Origin: a virus
Lineage: Duplodnaviria; Heunggongvirae; Uroviricota; Caudoviricetes
Length of the DNA: 34,205 nt
IMG/VR virus record: IMGVR_UViG_2579778753_000004
Direction: 5' to 3' (one strand)
The notes under the pieces were generated by a model. That model ran no database searches. It had not been told where the DNA came from and worked only from the letters and a program-made list of their open reading frames with translations. A program made the translations under genes and the position numbers. Below, in pieces: positions 3,936 through 33,514 of the stretch (position 1 is its first letter; each line of letters begins with the position of its first letter).

Positions 3936-4273
3936 AGCAACTCCTGAGTCCGGGGTTGTCCGTCAGAGCCTTTCCAGCTCACCCGGAGCGTAAGATGTTC
4001 GCCGTCGACGGCGGGTTTAACCGACATAAGCTGGCAGCGAGGCTCCCAGCGGCGAATGGCATCGACGGATTCGCGCACCACATGCGGAATAGCCCGGTCA
4101 ATAGGCCAGTCGATATAAAGGTGCAGATTGCTGCCGAACTCCGGGCGATGCGGGTCGCTGCCGCGAGGAGTACGCAGGATGATTTGAATGGCCTGCCAGA
4201 TATCATCCAGCCCCCGGACGATTTCGCCAGGGGCCTGCAGAGCCGGTTGCCAGAATACTGAGGTTGTTTTCAT
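3926..4273 (-). CDS. Baseplate wedge protein, GPW/gp25 family
   Basis: 115 aa, gp25-like size and synteny between V-like and J-like genes. Confidence 0.7.
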   Translation of the reverse strand: MKTTSVFWQPALQAPGEIVRGLDDIWQAIQIILRTPRGSDPHRPEFGSNLHLYIDWPIDRAIPHVVRESVDAIRRWEPRCQLMSVKPAVDGEHLTLRVSWKGSDGQPRTQELLWR

Positions 4274-4327
4274 GGGGGCAGTATTGCCCCTGTGCGGGAA
4301 CGCCGATATTAAAGGCGTTTAAGAAGG

Positions 4328-10068: not shown

Positions 10069-10135
10069 GATCGTGCTCCTGTGTAAGTTCAGAGCAGTAT
10101 GTCTGGTGGTGGGACTGGCAGATATTAAAGGGGAT

Positions 10136-10160
10136 TAAGAAGAAAGGGGCCGAAGCCCCT
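10136..10160 (-). terminator. Candidate intrinsic terminator after the small tail-operon ORF
   Basis: On the minus strand AGGGGC-UUCG-GCCCCU followed by UUUCUUCUUAAU, 6 nt after the stop of ORF 10167-10448. Confidence 0.5.
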
Positions 10161-15983: not shown

Positions 15984-16116
15984 TTTGCTGTCCCGCGTTA
16001 CGTTGTCGGGGACAGTCTGTGGAAAAAGCGTCAGCAGCGCTTTTAATCTGCTTTAGAAAAAATCGGGGGTATCAGTACGGGGAATGTCACGCTGCGGGCG
16101 AATAGTGGTGCAAAGC

Positions 16117-20480: not shown

Positions 20481-21025
20481 GAGGCAATCCCCAGAATTTC
20501 ACGACGCAGCGCCTGTACCGCATCGGTTGACAGTCCACCCTTACGGGCAATTTTCTCGGCGTTGCTGGCCGCCTGCTGCGCTCTGGCCCGGACTTCAGAC
20601 TGGAACTTCTTGAGGTTGACGGAAGCGCGGGACAGCGTGGCCACGTTCTTTGCCACCTTCGACAACAGCGCCACGCGCTCTTTGGGGTCGACTTCGCCTT
20701 CTTCCGCTTCCTGCAGCTGGACGATGCTCTCGAACAGCTCGGTCTGAATCAGGGCGATCACCGCCTCCGAACGTGCATCCTGATCGTCAGCCGCACCTTC
20801 GGTCAGCATCCGGGCCGCTTCAGTGGCTGCACGGATAGCGCCATAGCGGCGCTCAATCTTCTGGCCATAGCGATGGATAGCCGATTTGCTGATGACATAA
20901 CCCTGCTCACGCAGCAGGGACTCCAGCTCGTTATACCCGCTGAAGCCGGATTCAGTCAGCGCCCGCTCAAGCCAGCGACGCACGTCTTCCGGCAGCTTTT
21001 CTATCGTGCTGCGTCTGGCCATCAT
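20477..21025 (-). CDS. Terminase small subunit-like protein (Mu gp27-like)
   Basis: 182 aa immediately upstream of large subunit, ATGA overlap. Confidence 0.65.
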   Translation of the reverse strand: MMARRSTIEKLPEDVRRWLERALTESGFSGYNELESLLREQGYVISKSAIHRYGQKIERRYGAIRAATEAARMLTEGAADDQDARSEAVIALIQTELFESIVQLQEAEEGEVDPKERVALLSKVAKNVATLSRASVNLKKFQSEVRARAQQAASNAEKIARKGGLSTDAVQALRREILGIAS

Positions 21026-22308: not shown

Positions 22309-23035
22309 AGCTGCCGCCTCCCCAGGTGAGATAACGCGGGGCCAGTTCGTGCAGGATGCGCTGCGGATAATGACGGTTCTCCCGCCAGTTGGCAGTGCTG
22401 CGTCCGGCATTCACCGTGGCGACATGACCAAACCAGCGGGTGCTGTCCAGCCCCTGCTGCGAGGCCAGCCGTTTGTCCCGCTGTACCCAGCCCAGACCAC
22501 CGTTATAGCCTGACAGCGTCATGGCCATACGCTCGCAGTCATTGACGGCGCTGACGCGTTGCCACAGCCAGCGGTCATAGCTGACCAGCGCCCGGATGGC
22601 CCAAGACGGATTAAACGGTTCACGGCTGTTAAGCCCCGGCATCAGCTGACTTATCCAGTCAGCGGTGGTGGGCATAAACTGCGCCAGTCCCTGAGCGCCA
22701 ACCGGCGAGACCGCATCAGGTCGCCAGCCGCTTTCCTGATGCAGCTGCGCGGCGAAGTCGGCCACCGGCGCAGACATTCCCCATTCAAGCCGGGCATTAC
22801 GGATCACATCGTCGCGATACTGCAGCGCGGTCTGCGGTGGCTGGGCAGCGCGGGCCTGACTGAAGAAGCCGCCACACCAGAGCAGCCAGGCTACCGTTAC
22901 TGAACCAAAGAGCTGCCACCAGAAACTGTGCTTACCCGTTCGGGCCTGCCCGTGGCGGGCCAGTTCGATGCCCAGCCCCAGCAGTACCAGCACGGCCCAG
23001 ACAACCTGAGGCCAGTACATATAGAGGGTCATCAT
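22298..23035 (-). CDS. Lytic transglycosylase endolysin (SLT domain) with hydrophobic N-terminus (possible SAR-type)
   Basis: SLT catalytic motif ...QESGWRPDAVSPVGAQGLAQFMP...; about 60 N-terminal residues with two hydrophobic stretches. Confidence 0.8.
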   Translation of the reverse strand: MMTLYMYWPQVVWAVLVLLGLGIELARHGQARTGKHSFWWQLFGSVTVAWLLWCGGFFSQARAAQPPQTALQYRDDVIRNARLEWGMSAPVADFAAQLHQESGWRPDAVSPVGAQGLAQFMPTTADWISQLMPGLNSREPFNPSWAIRALVSYDRWLWQRVSAVNDCERMAMTLSGYNGGLGWVQRDKRLASQQGLDSTRWFGHVATVNAGRSTANWRENRHYPQRILHELAPRYLTWGGGSCVD

Positions 23036-23385
23036 TAAAGCCCCATCGCTACGGCCAGACAGACTGCAGCAACAATCAGCGCACGGCGGATTAGCGCAGC
23101 AGAAAAGACCAGGTGAAGGCCAGTCTGGACAGGGAAGCGACCATCAGCCATCAGCCTGTCATCATGCTTCAGGTACTGACCGGGACGGGCTTTGGGGAAA
23201 AGCGAACGGTCAAGCCAGTAGCCCAATACTGCCGCCAGCGTGATGAGTGATAGCTTGTAGACAACCACCGGCAGCTGCTGGGGCGATACCAGACCGATGG
23301 TGCCGAGCAGCAGCACAGCGGTCAGCAGCCAGCCGCTGAGACGTGGCTTTTTAACAGGGGGAATGAATTTTTTCAGGTTTTTCAT
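23035..23385 (-). CDS. Putative holin (three predicted transmembrane segments)
   Basis: Start at ATG 23385 (MKNLKKF...) with RBS AAGGAGA; first gene of the late operon, just upstream of the endolysin. Confidence 0.5.
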   Translation of the reverse strand: MKNLKKFIPPVKKPRLSGWLLTAVLLLGTIGLVSPQQLPVVVYKLSLITLAAVLGYWLDRSLFPKARPGQYLKHDDRLMADGRFPVQTGLHLVFSAALIRRALIVAAVCLAVAMGL

Positions 23386-23497
23386 GAGCGTCTCCTTGTG
23401 TAGTGGAGACAGCATCACAAATGGTCGGGGAAAGGGATTTTAAACAGCGTTAATAGTGAGGATGCAGACGTGAACCGCATGATGGCTTTGAAAGAAC

Positions 23498-23529
23498 GAC
23501 CAGCCCGGTGCGGTAACACCAGGCTGGTC
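23498..23529. promoter_or_regulatory. 32-bp palindrome in the divergent late/dam control region
   Basis: GACCAGCCCGGTG-CGGTAA-CACCAGGCTGGTC, 13-bp arms with one mismatch; GACCAG recurs in direct orientation at 23558 and 23583. Confidence 0.4.
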
Positions 23530-23632
23530 ATCAACCCACAGGTATGCACTGTGAGCCGACCAGGGTTCAGTCAGTCTCGCGAGACCAGACTAGCCTGCCA
23601 TATTTTCATTGATTGCAAAAGGCTTACGGATA

Positions 23633-24403
23633 ATGAAAGAACAATCTTTACCCATCGTCCCATGGATTGGCGGTAAACGTCGTCTGGCGAAGCATATTTT
23701 ACCATTGTTTCCGGCCCATACCTGCTATGTGGAGCCGTTCTGCGGGGCAGCTGCGCTCTATTTCCTAAAGACTCCCAGCAAGACCGAAGTCATTAACGAT
23801 ATCAACGGGGAACTGGTGAACCTCTATCGGGTGGTCAAGCATCATCTGGAAGAATTTATTCGCCAGTTCAAATGGGCGCTGGTCAGCCGTCAGATTTACA
23901 AATGGTTGCAGGATACGCCGGAAGAAACGCTCACCGACATTCAGCGGGCGGCCCGGTTCTACTACCTGCAGAAACAGGCATTTGGCGGCAAGGTCGCCGA
24001 TCACACATTCGGTACCTCTACAACCAGTGCGCCGCGCTTCAATTTGCTGCGTATTGAGGAAGAACTGTCGATGGCACACCTGCGCCTGTCGAGAACGCTG
24101 ATAGAGCATCTGGACTGGCACCAGTGCATAGAGCGATATGATCGCCCGCATACGCTGTTCTACTGTGACCCACCGTACTGGGGAACGGAAGGCTATGGTG
24201 TGGAGTTCGGGCTGGAAAACTATGATCACATGGCAGATTTAGCGCGAAGGATCAAAGGGAAGATGATTATATCAGTGAACGATATCCCGGAAATGCGGCA
24301 GGTATTCAACGGTCTGAACATGCAGTCGGTTGATATCAGCTACAACCTTAAGGTAACAGGCAAACCCAGCCCGAAGAAAGAGCTGGTAATTTGTAATTTT
24401 TGA
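23633..24403 (+). CDS. DNA N6-adenine methyltransferase, Dam-like (orphan)
   Basis: N-terminal PWIGGKRRL and catalytic DPPY (YCDPPYWGTEGYG) motifs; start taken at ATG 23633 (the ORF track starts at a TTG at 23609). Confidence 0.8.
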   Translation: MKEQSLPIVPWIGGKRRLAKHILPLFPAHTCYVEPFCGAAALYFLKTPSKTEVINDINGELVNLYRVVKHHLEEFIRQFKWALVSRQIYKWLQDTPEETLTDIQRAARFYYLQKQAFGGKVADHTFGTSTTSAPRFNLLRIEEELSMAHLRLSRTLIEHLDWHQCIERYDRPHTLFYCDPPYWGTEGYGVEFGLENYDHMADLARRIKGKMIISVNDIPEMRQVFNGLNMQSVDISYNLKVTGKPSPKKELVICNF

Positions 24404-24420
24404 AAGAGGTAGTTAAAGGT

Positions 24421-24443
24421 GGTGGTGCATCTGCAGCACCACC
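24421..24443. terminator. Candidate terminator hairpin between convergent dam and lipoprotein genes
   Basis: GGTGGTGC-ATCTGCA-GCACCACC, 8-bp GC-rich stem; on the minus strand it is followed by UUUAACUACCUCUUU. Confidence 0.4.
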
Positions 24444-24450
24444 TAAACAT

Positions 24451-24984
24451 TTAATCCTGCCTTGGACAAGTCCAATAATCATTATCTGGCTCTGGTGAAT
24501 AAGCTTTCAAACAACCTGCTCGCGGGGTCTTACCATCATCTGTCATAGGAACTTTTTCCTTATCAAGTTTCACGGTCAGGTCTCCACCAGGAACATCCGT
24601 TTTATCGAAAAAAACAGCCTGACATGCTGATTTAGATATTTTCACTTCGTGGGCATTATTTGATATGAACAAATAACAATTATGACCAGAGGCTATGTAG
24701 TCACTTGGAATATTATTTTCGTCTTTAATATGAAACTGCACCGTTGTCACCGGGCGTTCGCTATCCTCGGATACTTCGACTTTTTCAAAACTGTCCGCGT
24801 ACTTATCCAGGCCGGGGAGTTGTTGGCGAATAAACGGTAATTCGCGATTTACAACCGGATTATCTGTTTCAACGCTAAAAACCGCGTGCTCCTTAGCTGT
24901 GGTGGACGTATCAGCAGGATCGGTATTATCTCCACACCCAGATAAAACAAATATCAACGGTAAAAATAATTTGCGCATAGTCAT
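24451..24984 (-). CDS. Secreted lipoprotein, low-GC accessory gene downstream of the repressor
   Basis: MTMRKLFLPLIFVLSGC lipobox LSGC; a hand count over 100 nt gave about 44% GC versus visibly GC-richer flanks; same strand as, and 36 bp downstream of, the repressor gene; RBS GAGGT. Confidence 0.7.
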   Translation of the reverse strand: MTMRKLFLPLIFVLSGCGDNTDPADTSTTAKEHAVFSVETDNPVVNRELPFIRQQLPGLDKYADSFEKVEVSEDSERPVTTVQFHIKDENNIPSDYIASGHNCYLFISNNAHEVKISKSACQAVFFDKTDVPGGDLTVKLDKEKVPMTDDGKTPRAGCLKAYSPEPDNDYWTCPRQD

Positions 24985-25019: not shown

Positions 25020-25430
25020 TTAACCCGTATTTTTTAATCTTTCGAACGCTGCGGACAGCTCCTTAAGCTGTTTTTCCATATCAATCATTCGCTGTTTTTC
25101 CTCAGCGCCTCGCAGCAACTCTTTTCGCACCTCTGGCTCCAGTTGGTTGAGCAGCTCCAATAACTTCAGATCAGACTGGTTGAAATGCTGCTCCTGATTA
25201 GCTGGCTGTGCTTTCTCTACCCCAACAGCTTCCCCTTTACCAGTAAGTAGCCAATCTATTGATATGTTCAAATGGGTGCTTAGCGCAACAAGAGCCTCTG
25301 CATTAGGTTCTCTCTCTCCACGCAGATAGTTTTGAAGTGAGCGATATGGAATTTTTGACAAGTCTGACAATGCCTTAATTGTCAGACCCTTAGCATCCAT
25401 CGCTTCGCGCAATCTCTCTTTTATACTCAT
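25020..25430 (-). CDS. Prophage repressor (XRE/Cro-CI type HTH, C-terminal coiled coil)
   Basis: Start at ATG 25430 (MSIKERLREAMDAKGLTIKALSDLSKIPYRSLQNYLRGE...); divergent from the early operon. Confidence 0.75.
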   Translation of the reverse strand: MSIKERLREAMDAKGLTIKALSDLSKIPYRSLQNYLRGEREPNAEALVALSTHLNISIDWLLTGKGEAVGVEKAQPANQEQHFNQSDLKLLELLNQLEPEVRKELLRGAEEKQRMIDMEKQLKELSAAFERLKNTG

Positions 25431-32549: not shown

Positions 32550-32967
32550 GCAGCGTCTTATTCAACTCATTCATATTGCCCGCAGCGACCTCCAGATGGA
32601 TGAGGACACCTACCGCCAGATGCTACAGGGGCTGACCGGCAAAGCCTCAACCAAAGGGATGGATACCCCACAACTAAACCGCGTGCTGGAATCAATGAAA
32701 AAGAAAGGCTTTCGCATTAAGCCTGCCGGGAAAGCCAAGTCCGGCTTACCGCTCGACAGCCATCCGCAGTCAAAGAAAATCCGTGCGCTATGGCTTGAAA
32801 TGGCTGCCGCAGGCATCGTCCGTGACAGTTCAGAGCAGGCGCTGGCGCTGTGGGTTAAACGGGAAACCGGCATCAGCGCGTTACGCTGGCTCAGCAATGA
32901 GCAGGCAAGTAGCGTGATTGAGAAACTGAAGAAGTGGCAGCGCAGAGCTGCGGGAGTGAAGCAATGA
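32539..32967 (+). CDS. gemA: GemA-like protein (Mu gp16 family)
   Basis: Start at ATGATG 32539 with RBS AAAGGAG; ...LIQLIHIARSDLQMDEDTYRQML... aligns with Mu GemA as I recall it. Confidence 0.65.
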   Translation: MMTKQRLIQLIHIARSDLQMDEDTYRQMLQGLTGKASTKGMDTPQLNRVLESMKKKGFRIKPAGKAKSGLPLDSHPQSKKIRALWLEMAAAGIVRDSSEQALALWVKRETGISALRWLSNEQASSVIEKLKKWQRRAAGVKQ

Positions 32968-33353
32968 GCGACCTGAATCAGTTTCGTAGTAAAGGGCCGG
33001 AACTGTTGGTGGAACTGGCACAGCATACCTCTGAGACTGTCCGCGAGATTATTGATATCGAACCCGCAGTTGCCGACCAGATTGGTCAGGCCGTCGCGAA
33101 CCGCATGATGCAGGTCTGGGGTGGGCAAAACGTCTATTTTCCGATGGGCATGGTCTGGAAGGTCAGCCAGCGCGACCGGGAAATTTTCCTGGAGTTTGAC
33201 GGGCGCAACCATCACGAACTGGCCCGCAAATTTGGTGTTTCACTACAGTGGGTTTACAGCGTGGTGAAGCGGGTCAGAAAAGAAGAACTGGATCGGATGC
33301 AGGGCAAACTGTTTGATGGCGAACCTGATGCCGATACAGGGAAAAAGGAGTAA
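32964..33353 (+). CDS. mor: Mor/C-family transcriptional activator
   Basis: ...VWGGQNVYFPMG...FDGRNHHELARKFGVSLQWVYSVVKR... aligns with Mu Mor (GGQ.VYIP ... FNGRN..EL...YGV....VY) from memory; ATGA overlap with gemA. Confidence 0.75.
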   Translation: MSDLNQFRSKGPELLVELAQHTSETVREIIDIEPAVADQIGQAVANRMMQVWGGQNVYFPMGMVWKVSQRDREIFLEFDGRNHHELARKFGVSLQWVYSVVKRVRKEELDRMQGKLFDGEPDADTGKKE

Positions 33354-33443: not shown

Positions 33444-33514
33444 CTTCCCATGTTGACCCAGTACTTCCCATAATTATCTCACTTATCCCCTGTCATTTAT
33501 CTCAAGTCTAATCA
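33444..33514. repeat. Prophage right terminus with subterminal direct repeats (putative transposase-binding sites)
   Basis: CTTCCCAT at 33444 and 33464 (20-bp period); TTATCTC at 33475 and 33498 (23-bp period); element ends ...AATCA at 33514. Confidence 0.55.

Follow-up and report, generated by a model that had tools for sequence, protein, structure and literature searches.

A palindrome upstream of a phage dam gene as the probable 3' stem-loop of a conserved small RNA gene antisense to the dam leader

The region between the holin gene and the divergent dam gene of an E. coli prophage contains a long palindrome, which raises the question of whether this symmetry serves a DNA-binding regulator or has another role. 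The window, by which we mean the whole stretch of 34,205 nucleotides that was analysed, comes from an E. coli transposable prophage that is Bcepmuvirus-like. Three of its genes are of concern here:

23035-23385, minus strand: holin gene, first in the late lysis operon (PF13272, E = 1e-41; annotation)
23633-24403, plus strand: dam, a D12-class N6-adenine DNA methyltransferase (PF02086, E = 1e-27)
32964-33353, plus strand: gene for a Mor-family transcription activator (PF08765, E = 1e-42)

In an identical E. coli locus, 23633-24403 is annotated as a DNA adenine methylase and 32964-33353 is labelled as Mor family. Another hairpin is present between dam and the lipoprotein gene. The true limits of the holin-dam intergenic region are 23386-23632, where an earlier, sequence-only reading had given 23419-23632. 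That reading proposed a divergent, activator-dependent late control region in which a 32-bp palindrome and further GACCAG copies might bind the Mor-family activator or another regulator. The palindrome does exist, with arms of 13 nt each (23498-23510 and 23517-23529) that are complementary at 12 of 13 positions and separated by a 6-nt spacer, and so do the GACCAG copies, at 23498 (+), 23524 (-), 23558 (+) and 23583 (+), two of which belong to the arms of the palindrome. We consider it rather probable, though far from assured, that the palindrome is the 3' stem-loop of a conserved minus-strand small RNA gene, whose RNA would be a cis-antisense regulator of, and leader switch on, a mom-like dam.

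The expectation of divergent late control under an activator is supported for this locus. The prophage has a Mor-family gene and the holin promoter has no -35; a promoter scan found no sigma-70 -35/-10 pair in 23200-23800. The TAAAAT upstream of the holin ATG (23385) that had been taken for a -10 is indeed present (23442..23437, minus strand) and has no -35, but it does not serve as the -10; it forms the right half of a dyad that reads TTAAC-GCTG-TTTAA on the holin strand (23453..23440), and TAATAT stands in the same place at two other late promoters. As a holin -10, it was rejected because nothing is conserved upstream of it, and because a conserved nAnnnT hexamer lies at a fixed 23 nt downstream, with a mirror-image hexamer across the dyad. 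The promoter features are as follows:

23440-23453, unstranded: Mor/C-type dyad box TTAACGCTGTTTAA, common to P_lys and P_dam; contains TAAAAT (23442..23437)
23411-23416, minus strand: P_lys -10, GATGCT, predicted start ~23404
23478-23483, plus strand: P_dam -10, CATGAT, predicted start ~23490, just before the palindrome
10096-10138, minus strand: second late promoter, TTAATCCCCTTTAA, 23 nt, CATACT
4280-4322, minus strand: third late promoter, TTAAACGCCTTTAA, 23 nt, AATACT
16014-16056, minus strand: fourth late promoter, with a degenerate box, CTAAAGCAGATTAA, 23 nt, CAGACT

The combination of box, 24 N and A..CT is present at exactly 3 sites of the window versus 0 expected, always on the late strand and upstream of late gene blocks. 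Among relatives the box TTAACGCTGTTTAA is conserved and an nAnnnT hexamer is found at the fixed 23 nt from it in all cases (e.g. CATAAT in Pectobacterium, AAAACT, CACACT). On the dam side, a CAnnnT hexamer lies 23-24 nt from the dyad box in nearly every lineage, dam cassettes with their own box carry CATCCT, CATCAT, CAGGAT or CAGTAT, and in most lineages the -10 hexamers are symmetric on both sides of the dyad. The dyad thus precedes the predicted start by ~42-44 bp in either direction, with its centre at ~-42.5 for P_lys. In phage Mu, the Mor dyad of Pm is centred at -43.5 (PMC4287176), and C binds related dyads at four late promoters (PMC4287176; bioRxiv 10.1101/2025.05.02.651988). The palindrome lies at ~-94 to -125 relative to the predicted P_lys start, which is not the Mor-typical place. 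On these sequence grounds, the real activator site would be the 14-bp dyad and not the palindrome. P_dam is a promoter predicted from motif geometry alone, and its predicted start falls 0-9 nt before the hairpin. The late-promoter rule for Bcepmuvirus-like prophages would be TTAAm-N4-TTTAA, then 23 nt, then nAnnnT, and its use in either orientation would explain how dam and inserted cargo genes come to be late genes.

What, then, is the palindrome? Viewed on the minus strand, it is the last hairpin of a larger folded element, whose parts are listed here in the 5' to 3' direction of the predicted RNA:

~23490-23585, minus strand: predicted small RNA of ~96 nt, antisense to the dam leader (covariance model, folds, conservation)
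23592-23600, minus strand: predicted extended -10 promoter of the RNA, TGgCAGGCT (TG at 23600..23599, n, CAGGCT at 23597..23592), with a predicted start at ~23585
23569-23591, unstranded: P1, 5' palindromic hairpin whose 12-bp core GTCTCGCGAGAC (23574-23585) is a perfect palindrome, flanked by outer arms at 23569-23572 and 23588-23591
23565-23568, minus strand: 5' strand of the closing helix, GAAC, which with its partner GUUC encloses P2 and P3 and gives a three-way junction
23530-23560, minus strand: P2, the most conserved hairpin, GUCGGC-U-CACAG, loop, CUGUG-G-GUUGAU
23498-23529, minus strand: P3, the 32-bp palindrome, 3' stem-loop and putative terminator hairpin (fold, covariation, G.U bias)
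23489-23497, minus strand: 3' strand of the closing helix, GUUC (23497..23494), then the U-rich tail UUUCA (covariation; tail kept)

The covariance model R1 scores 141 bits at 23484-23611 (minus strand). The single-sequence fold of the RNA has an energy of -58.6 kcal/mol (z = -5.1), and the P3 hairpin has -31.0 kcal/mol on the minus strand (z = -8.2) versus -23.1 kcal/mol on the plus strand. P1 starts at the predicted +1 of the RNA, and its core is retained as a perfect palindrome, with differing centre, in ~20 lineages. Directly 5' of P1, distant members aligned by means of the model conserve a TGnTAnnnT motif (T 24/40, G 27/37, T 29/35, A 30/35, T 29/35), and we infer that it would be the promoter of the RNA. 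A different choice, GAAAAT (23607..23602) as the -10 with cTGTAA as the -35, was rejected since TGnTAGGCT is what the distant members conserve. At the other end, the tail GUUCUUUCA has 5 U among its first 8 bases in a short, interrupted U-tract, and a U- and pyrimidine-rich tail follows the closing helix in all lineages. A consensus terminator scan did not call the P3 hairpin, probably because greedy G-T stem extension takes the first GTT of the tail. P2 with its tandem G.U pairs and the apex of P3 (GGUGUU..GCACC) are near-invariant even where Dam is only 62-77% identical. Rfam 15 gave no match at the gathering threshold across the whole window, and at E <= 10 the interval 23200-23800 returned just one chance S15 fragment; we found no account of this RNA in the literature.

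Related loci allow the structure to be examined independently of its sequence, and it is conserved with compensatory changes at more than 150 of them. Among 51 close sequences, 96.9% of cells are paired versus 31-51% when the partners are slid, with double changes at 17 pairs, and none of 500 shuffles reached the observed values. The corresponding figures for 44 distant sequences are 92.7% versus 29-53%, with double changes at 32 of 34 pairs. P3 has double changes at 11 of 11 pairs in the diverse set, P2 covaries at all 11 pairs (alignment A4), and the closing helix is paired in 98.8-99.5% of cells through the variants GAAC/GUUC, GAGC/GCUC, GCGC/GCGC and GGGC/GCCC. We regard the structure and its covariation as demonstrated.

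The type of mismatch that is tolerated can indicate which strand folds. Read on the minus strand, the overall ratio of G.U to A.C is 233:30 in alignment A1 and 178:29 in A4. The ratio is 130:0 (A1) and 92:5 (A4) for P2, and 77:13 and 52:7 for P3; by these counts both main hairpins belong to the strand antisense to dam. RNAalifold likewise gives -36.4 for the minus strand versus -16.7 for the reverse complement. This strand bias is plain in P2 and P3, but P1 shows none, with 23:17 and 29:17. Since P1 is also a perfect, loop-free palindrome, which an RNA hairpin does not need, part of the element may work as DNA rather than as RNA.

Several finer readings of the element were tried and rejected. 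AGCCU in P1 as an anti-Shine-Dalgarno sequence fails because distant members differ in the central bases of the hexamer, and pairing of the RNA linker GAGCCUU with the dam ribosome site is kept neither in the window type nor in VP882. Brenneria and Photorhabdus do not preserve the alternative antiterminator pairings among the CUGGUC copies (inverted repeats I2 and I3). A small ORF was also rejected: PhiKM annotates the dam start inside P2, but the loops carry indels whose lengths do not keep to multiples of three, and there is an in-frame stop in the window.

The distribution of the element follows dam. It was found solely beside this dam family, including in Vibrio VP882 and in Shewanella, Pseudomonas and Burkholderia phages. 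In every case it is antisense and sits immediately 5' of either dam or a Com-like ORF, some relatives having a Com-like zinc-ribbon gene between element and dam. Across 80 holin loci it tracks the presence or absence of dam with 2 exceptions (L056 and L076), in which the element is kept and tblastn found no dam. The element is present in 78 of 79 viral loci with a Dam at least 75% identical and in 45 of 71 with a Dam 62-77% identical, the other 26 of the 71 being unmatched under default filters. It occurs in 556 of 5426 complete E. coli genomes (~10%), at a median of 1 and at most 3 places in each genome; nearly all the matches listed have dam annotated beneath them, and a truncated dam is among the two exceptions listed. 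By the covariance model the window holds no second copy. A BLAST search of deposited phages with the element recovered 3 records only, and the wider family is visible only with the covariance model. The VP882 member lies at 20853-20980 on the minus strand of EF057797 (70.5 bits); by GenBank classification this Vibrio phage is a Hapunavirus and not Mu-like, and a Burkholderia Stanholtvirus is a second unrelated phage that has the element together with dam. The members in VP882 and in the Shewanella, Pseudomonas and Burkholderia phages point at the 3' ends of tail genes, and no lysis operon follows. Other relatives have extra genes inserted between the palindrome and the holin promoter, which shift the distance by 0.8-1.4 kb, so the spacing between the two is not fixed. 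A leader or antitermination site of the late lysis operon (lambda PR'-tR' or put-like) was rejected because the element follows dam and not the lysis genes. The linkage to dam is demonstrated; several phage types have a portable dam cassette, of which the predicted RNA gene is an integral component.

How might such an RNA act on dam? In the minimum-energy fold of the dam leader, the segment CUGUGAGCC (23549..23557, plus strand) pairs with GGCUUACGG (23620-23628), immediately before the dam AUG. The core of this helix is kept in 20 lineages, with the compensatory variants CUGCAAG/CUUGCAG, CUGCGAG/UUUGCAG and CCGUAAG/CUUAUG. Clear compensatory changes occur at 2 positions only and 38 of 500 shuffles match the observed number of covarying pairs; because the alignment was hand-fitted, we take the evidence for this helix as moderate. 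The dam ribosome site itself lies outside the predicted RNA, there are only ~22 nt between the element and the dam ATG, and com is absent from the window.

From these comparisons we infer that the RNA is produced, where it would start, and that it would have a regulatory effect. The dam cassette and the late lysis promoter lie back to back, and one dyad would serve P_lys and the divergent P_dam. The minus-strand RNA would start from its own promoter at ~23585 and terminate intrinsically at ~23490 by means of P3 and the U-rich tail. As the late dam transcript is predicted to start where the RNA ends (~23490), the first ~96 nt of the leader would be fully complementary to the RNA. Pairing of CUGUGAGCC with GGCUUACGG would hide the dam ribosome site, and the small RNA would act in cis as an antisense regulator of Dam synthesis. 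A duplex of RNA and leader must cover the anti-ribosome-site segment, so that either the ribosome site would be opened or the message would be destroyed (by RNase III or head-on transcription). The terminator may also halt antisense transcription before the lysis genes. A further possibility, which we think unlikely, is that the element is a new class of structured phage RNA with a specific partner (Dam, a Com-like protein, a host factor or a molecule like S-adenosylmethionine) that sets a mom-like enzyme by feedback, with P1 as a DNA-level operator at the start site. The high conservation of P2 and of the P3 apex would fit an RNA that binds a specific partner.

These proposals have to be weighed against readings in which no antisense RNA is at work. 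The original suggestion, in which Mor or another phage regulator of the divergent late promoters would bind the palindrome and the GACCAG copies as operators, can point to a dyad-symmetric site between divergent genes, to the Mor-family gene and to four GACCAG copies in 92 bp. A search for GACCAG arrays did show this to be the sole 100-bp stretch of the window with 4 copies, but the hexamer is ~2 times commoner than expected window-wide (38 versus 17 +/- 4). The four-copy cluster in 100 bp has P ~0.006 under uniform placement and P ~0.17 for at least 3, two of the four being arms of one palindrome; the sequence of the two extra copies is not kept in distant relatives. Among relatives, moreover, the palindrome varies in its distance to the holin promoter, its arms change in sequence while staying complementary, its mismatches are strand-specific G.U pairs, it goes with dam into Vibrio VP882 and Burkholderia phages, and a different dyad recurs at the four late promoters in the Mor-typical position. 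By this comparison of sequences the operator role appears largely refuted, and we hold it to be very improbable. Even less can be said for a dispersed repeat (REP/ERIC/MITE-like) or chance palindrome, with (A)TGAAAGAAC at 23489-23497 and 23634-23642 as a target-site duplication. A 9-11 bp direct repeat does flank a 145-bp unit in the window and in KP12. An inserted mobile element of this size was nevertheless rejected, because other variants retain only ATGAAA of the flanking repeat and the element occupies a median of one place per genome; with the maximum of 3 places, dam under nearly every match listed and the lack of a second copy in the window, copy number and context refute this origin, whose chance we put at close to nil.

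The palindrome could be merely an insulating intrinsic terminator against minus-strand read-through, from the repressor/lipoprotein operon or from dam antisense transcription, into the lysis genes, the upstream hairpins having no RNA function. The hairpin with its U-rich tail is oriented toward holin, read-through into holin would be harmful, and the lysis genes share the strand. Against this, relatives that lack dam and have the same lysis promoter also lack the element, the VP882, Shewanella, Pseudomonas and Burkholderia elements face tail genes, P2, the closing helix and TGnTAnnnT are conserved along with the hairpin, and the gap between dam and the lipoprotein gene already has a separate hairpin. 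We think it unlikely that insulation is the whole explanation. It is similarly a minority prospect in our estimate that the sense strand is the functional one, as a cis-acting leader of the dam or com-dam mRNA (a translation-inhibitory fold, a Com-like target or a ligand sensor) of which the minus-strand signals are by-products. The element always lies 5' of dam or com, the plus-strand helix of CUGUGAGCC and the ribosome site covaries and includes plus-strand G.U pairs, P1 has no strand bias, and Mu com-mom is a precedent for leader control of a DNA-modification gene (PMC3299994). The G.U to A.C ratios of 130:0 in P2 and 77:13 in P3 favour the antisense strand, however; the plus strand cannot fold the outer half of P2, only the minus strand has a U-rich tail after the structure, the conserved extended -10 points in the minus direction, and no Rfam riboswitch or leader family matches. 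A functional leader would be compatible with the antisense RNA that we prefer, because the leader is the proposed target of that RNA.

If the antisense RNA is made, it would represent a widespread structured RNA family that is new to Rfam and tied to phage dam, with a scope of at least 5 bacterial genera, several phage types and about one-tenth of complete E. coli genomes. Of the known systems, VpdS of Vibrio phage VP882 is an Hfq-binding, trans-acting small RNA of ~50 nt in the account of Sprenger et al. 2024 as cited in PMC12197685; VP882 makes at least one small RNA by that account, and it has a member of the element described here, whose U-tail is poor for Hfq. The short PR'-tR' transcript of lambdoid phages (6S RNA, StxS) is similar in being a short terminated transcript (predicted here) just upstream of holin, with foreign genes between terminator and holin. 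Our element, in contrast, belongs to dam and is missing without it, and late control would be by an activator and not by an antiterminator. There is a formal likeness to P22 sar/ant, lambda OOP/cII and IS10 RNA-OUT/RNA-IN, in which a short structured RNA with its own promoter and terminator (both predicted here) lies opposite the 5' part of a tightly controlled gene. Unlike sar, OOP and RNA-OUT, to which it has no sequence or Rfam relation, the element leaves the ribosome site uncovered, folds into a three-way junction and shows very high conservation of P2.

The arrangement of promoters can be compared with the Mor/C promoters of Mu (Pm, Plys, PI, PP and Pmom), which also have a -10 without a -35 and an imperfect dyad ~43 bp upstream of the start. 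Here too there is one Mor-family activator, four late promoters and a DNA-modification gene among the late targets. The likeness concerns 23440-23453 and not the 32-bp palindrome, and it has its limits, in that the dyad here is TTAAm-N4-TTTAA and one dyad would serve two divergent promoters. As for dam itself, Mu com-mom and the com-dam pairs of Mu-like phages such as B3 (PMC3299994) share with this locus a potentially harmful DNA-modification gene that is expressed late. In com-mom the translation start can also be concealed in an mRNA fold (PMC3299994), and some relatives of our prophage have a Com-like zinc-ribbon ORF before dam, although the window is without com. No counterpart to a conserved structured RNA from the opposite strand has been described in Mu. 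With this element, the control of anti-restriction and epigenetic methylases would gain a further layer made of RNA, paralleling the multi-layer control of mom in Mu.

In our reading, a portable dam cassette includes a conserved antisense RNA gene, and the 32-bp palindrome at 23498-23529 is that gene's predicted terminator hairpin. The E. coli CFS3292 chromosome and Escherichia phage Phi06_2974 B show 100% identity to the window, Klebsiella phage KP12 is 95% identical to it, and phage PhiKM, a Bcepmuvirus according to the GenBank classification, is a more remote relative. The prophage is laid out as follows:

23035-23385, minus strand: holin gene, start of the minus-strand late genes
23633-24403, divergent from the late genes: dam gene
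25020-25430, minus strand: CI-like repressor gene
32964-33353: Mor-family gene
plus strand: early genes, including the transposase

In CFS3292 (comparison locus L003, 22596-23600, about window position 33495 onward), a truncated gadC, an acid-resistance antiporter gene, abuts the Mor-side prophage end and was apparently the gene into which the prophage inserted. A hairpin, GGTGGTGC-N7-GCACCACC (24418-24440), separates dam from a lipoprotein-like gene (24451-24984) where their 3' ends converge, and may be a bidirectional terminator, with weak U-tracts.

The sequence-only reading had located the palindrome, four GACCAG copies and a TAAAAT correctly, and its view of a divergent late control region is upheld. 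It had also suggested that the repeats may bind the Mor-family activator or another regulator. The palindrome does not belong to the holin promoter: in relatives, gene insertions separate the two and the palindrome stays with dam. The insertion is a DUF2441 gene in KP12 and E. coli 503440, where it sits between the palindrome and a ~75-bp stub next to holin; at that position PhiKM and two further E. coli strains have three ORFs. Despite these insertions, the palindrome through to dam is kept together as one unit, which in E. coli 503440 persists beside a truncated dam. The interval from the holin promoter box to the dam cassette forms an insertion hot spot for cargo genes (loci L001 3339-4380; L002 2360-3860; L005 to L007), and the cargo ORFs of PhiKM and related prophages are three and small. 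The palindrome is far from chance (minus-strand fold -31.0 kcal/mol, z = -8.2). With both palindrome arms counted as a single event, the GACCAG cluster departs only marginally from chance; its copies are helix strands of the RNA element and do not form a conserved motif. GACCAG/CTGGTC is over-represented in the window as a whole, with 38 occurrences versus 17 +/- 4 expected from dinucleotide shuffles, probably through a codon effect (CTG GTC, GAC CAG).

Two sets of loci were compared: 80 around holin homologues, taken from a single genome for each species, and 54 viral contigs with a conserved 20-mer. BLAST picks up the dam-upstream unit in Photorhabdus, Xenorhabdus, Brenneria, Serratia, Citrobacter, Salmonella diarizonae, Arsenophonus and Symbiopectobacterium. 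RNAalifold on 51 distinct copies gave four elements, namely a 5' hairpin (P1), a 4-bp closing helix, a hairpin (P2) and the palindrome (P3). In this alignment 96.9% of cells are paired versus 31-51% with slid partners, both sides have changed at 17 pairs, and the observed values were reached by 0 of 500 shuffles. The distant set has compensatory changes at 32 of 34 pairs, with 92.7% of cells pairing. GAAC (23568..23565) forms the closing helix with GUUC directly after P3; this helix covaries (GAGC/GCUC, GCGC/GCGC, GGGC/GCCC) and is followed by a U-rich run in every lineage. Sequence conservation is extreme in P2 and in the apex of P3. A consensus terminator scan made no call at the palindrome site, which we attribute to greedy stem extension through G-T pairs that consumes the first bases of the tail. 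No family of Rfam 15 matched the element.

Mismatch cells in the close set comprise 233 G.U on the minus strand, antisense to dam, and 30 on the plus strand (seen as A.C); the corresponding counts in the distant set are 178 and 29. RNAalifold energies for the close alignment (A1) are -36.4 on the minus and -16.7 on the plus strand. The G.U to A.C ratio is 130:0 (close) and 92:5 (distant) in P2, and 77:13 and 52:7 in P3. Selection on P2, P3 and the terminator therefore acts on the strand antisense to dam. P1, symmetric at 23:17 (close) and 29:17 (distant), is without strand specificity.

Judged by its distribution, the element belongs to dam and not to the lysis genes. R1, a covariance model of the element, finds it in 37 of the 80 holin loci, 35 of which have dam, with ~22 nt between element and dam ATG; the remaining two, L056 and L076, keep the element and have no dam match by tblastn. 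Pectobacterium and other relatives without dam lack the element. It lies antisense and directly upstream of a homologous dam in Vibrio phage VP882 (70.5 bits with R1), Shewanella phage MuM16-1 (53.6 bits), Pseudomonas phage Bise (38 bits) and Burkholderia phage PhiBt-E264.1 (37.6 bits), in all of which dam comes after tail genes and the element has no lysis promoter behind it. Among IMG/VR loci with a Dam at least 75% identical, 78 of 79 have the element, as do 45 of 71 loci with a Dam 62-77% identical. Of 5426 complete E. coli genomes 556 carry it, at a median of one place per genome. One IMG/VR contig (L201) has two copies, 417-544 and 1052-1179 (134 and 109.5 bits), before a single dam. The annotated dam start of PhiKM (L002 3913-4767) lies 84 nt further upstream, within P2, and is probably an annotation artefact, because the frame is interrupted by a stop codon in the window and the region shows RNA-like evolution. 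A Com-like zinc-ribbon ORF (PF10122) sits between element and dam in Bise, Curvibacter TJ1 and several contigs; the Bise ORF matches PF10122 at E = 2e-12 and that of TJ1 is similar by eye (L143 1270-1437; L142 1314-1469). At the position of this ORF, a 170-200 nt gap is seen in several IMG/VR loci. This order is the com-dam arrangement, in place of com-mom, already described for Mu-like phages (PMC3299994).

Distant members keep TGnTAnnnT immediately 5' of P1 (e.g. TAGGCT, TAGAAT, TAAACT, TACACT, TAGCCT), with T, A and the last T conserved, the middle variable and TG one base upstream of the hexamer, the signature of an extended -10 promoter. The position of the window copy, TG-G-CAGGCT (23600..23592, minus strand), predicts an RNA start at ~23585, the first base of P1's perfect 12-bp palindrome GTCTCGCGAGAC, and the RNA is predicted to span ~96 nt, from 23585 to ~23490. 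The P1 core (window 23569-23591; distant alignment, A4) is a perfect palindrome without a loop, the 6-bp centre of which varies in ~20 lineages (TCGCGA, CTGCAG, GTCGAC, CGATCG, TGATCA, ACCGGT, CCCGGG, GTGCAC, ACGCGT and TGTACA, among others). An RNA hairpin does not account for this pattern, nor does a fixed operator for a protein.

Alignment upstream of holin leaves two conserved blocks, a dyad and a hexamer, and nothing conserved upstream of the dyad. The hexamer, nAnnnT, lies 23 nt downstream of the dyad and is GATGCT in the window (CATAAT, AAAACT, CACACT elsewhere). The TAAAAT formerly proposed as a -10 is the right half-site of the dyad plus three bases.

23453..23440, minus strand: dyad TTAAm-N4-TTTAA
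23453, 10138 and 4322, late strand: exact motif copies, each upstream of a late gene block
16056: fourth copy, degenerate
23478-23483: CATGAT, the window's mirror hexamer

The motif TTAA-N5-TTTAA-N24-A-NN-CT occurs exactly 3 times in the window versus 0 expected, and four late promoters share one architecture, dyad TTAAN-N4-TTTAA, 23 nt, nAnnCT (23453..23411, 16056..16014, 10138..10096 and 4322..4280, minus strand). The hexamer of the 4280 promoter ends 6 nt short of the ATG at 4273, which suggests that the mRNA is leaderless or that the hairpin GGGGCA/UGCCCC holds its start codon. An inverted repeat at 23390-23410 (minus strand; also at 10069-10095) has the holin Shine-Dalgarno GGAGAC (23395..23390) as its 3' arm; its 5' arm, GUCUCC (23410..23405), falls downstream of the -10 and ahead of the predicted +1. 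It covaries (GCCUCC/GGAGGC in Pectobacterium, CUGUUUCC/GGAGACAG in Photorhabdus), folds at -10.7 kcal/mol and would present the anti-Shine-Dalgarno arm on read-through transcripts only; we liken it to the fold-back inhibition of IS10.

On the opposite side of the dyad, 23-24 nt off, CAnnnT is found in nearly every lineage. In lineages with genes inserted between dam and the holin promoter, a separate dyad box and hexamer accompany the dam cassette, either GTAAATCGCGTTAA and CATCCT or CTAAACCACATTAA and CATCAT. Since the mirror hexamer also occurs in relatives without dam, the box would be bidirectional in general. The dam promoter is predicted to start at ~23490, 0-9 nt before the palindrome, so that the late dam mRNA would have a leader of ~142 nt, the first ~96 nt being the exact complement of the small RNA. 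In the minimum-energy leader fold, CUGUGAGCC (23549-23557) pairs with GGCUUACGG (23620-23628), a segment just ahead of the AUG; 20 lineages share this pairing and show both compensatory variants and plus-strand G.U pairs in it. Support for a conserved pairing of the leader with the ribosome-site region is moderate, because the alignment was fitted by hand. Since CUGUGAGCC forms the 3' arm of P2's sense copy and is complementary to the 5' arm of P2 in the small RNA, a duplex between RNA and leader would necessarily release the dam ribosome site, barring cleavage of the duplex or a collision of the two polymerases.

Taking GATGCT as the -10 centres the dyad at about -42.5. In phage Mu, the dyad bound by Mor has its centre at -43.5, in a promoter with a -10 and no -35, and Mu C binds related dyads at four late promoters (PMC4287176; PMC4461284; bioRxiv 10.1101/2025.05.02.651988). 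The geometry of dyad and -10 in the window fits that of the Mor and C promoters, and by this analogy the TTAAC-N4-TTTAA dyad is the putative activator site.
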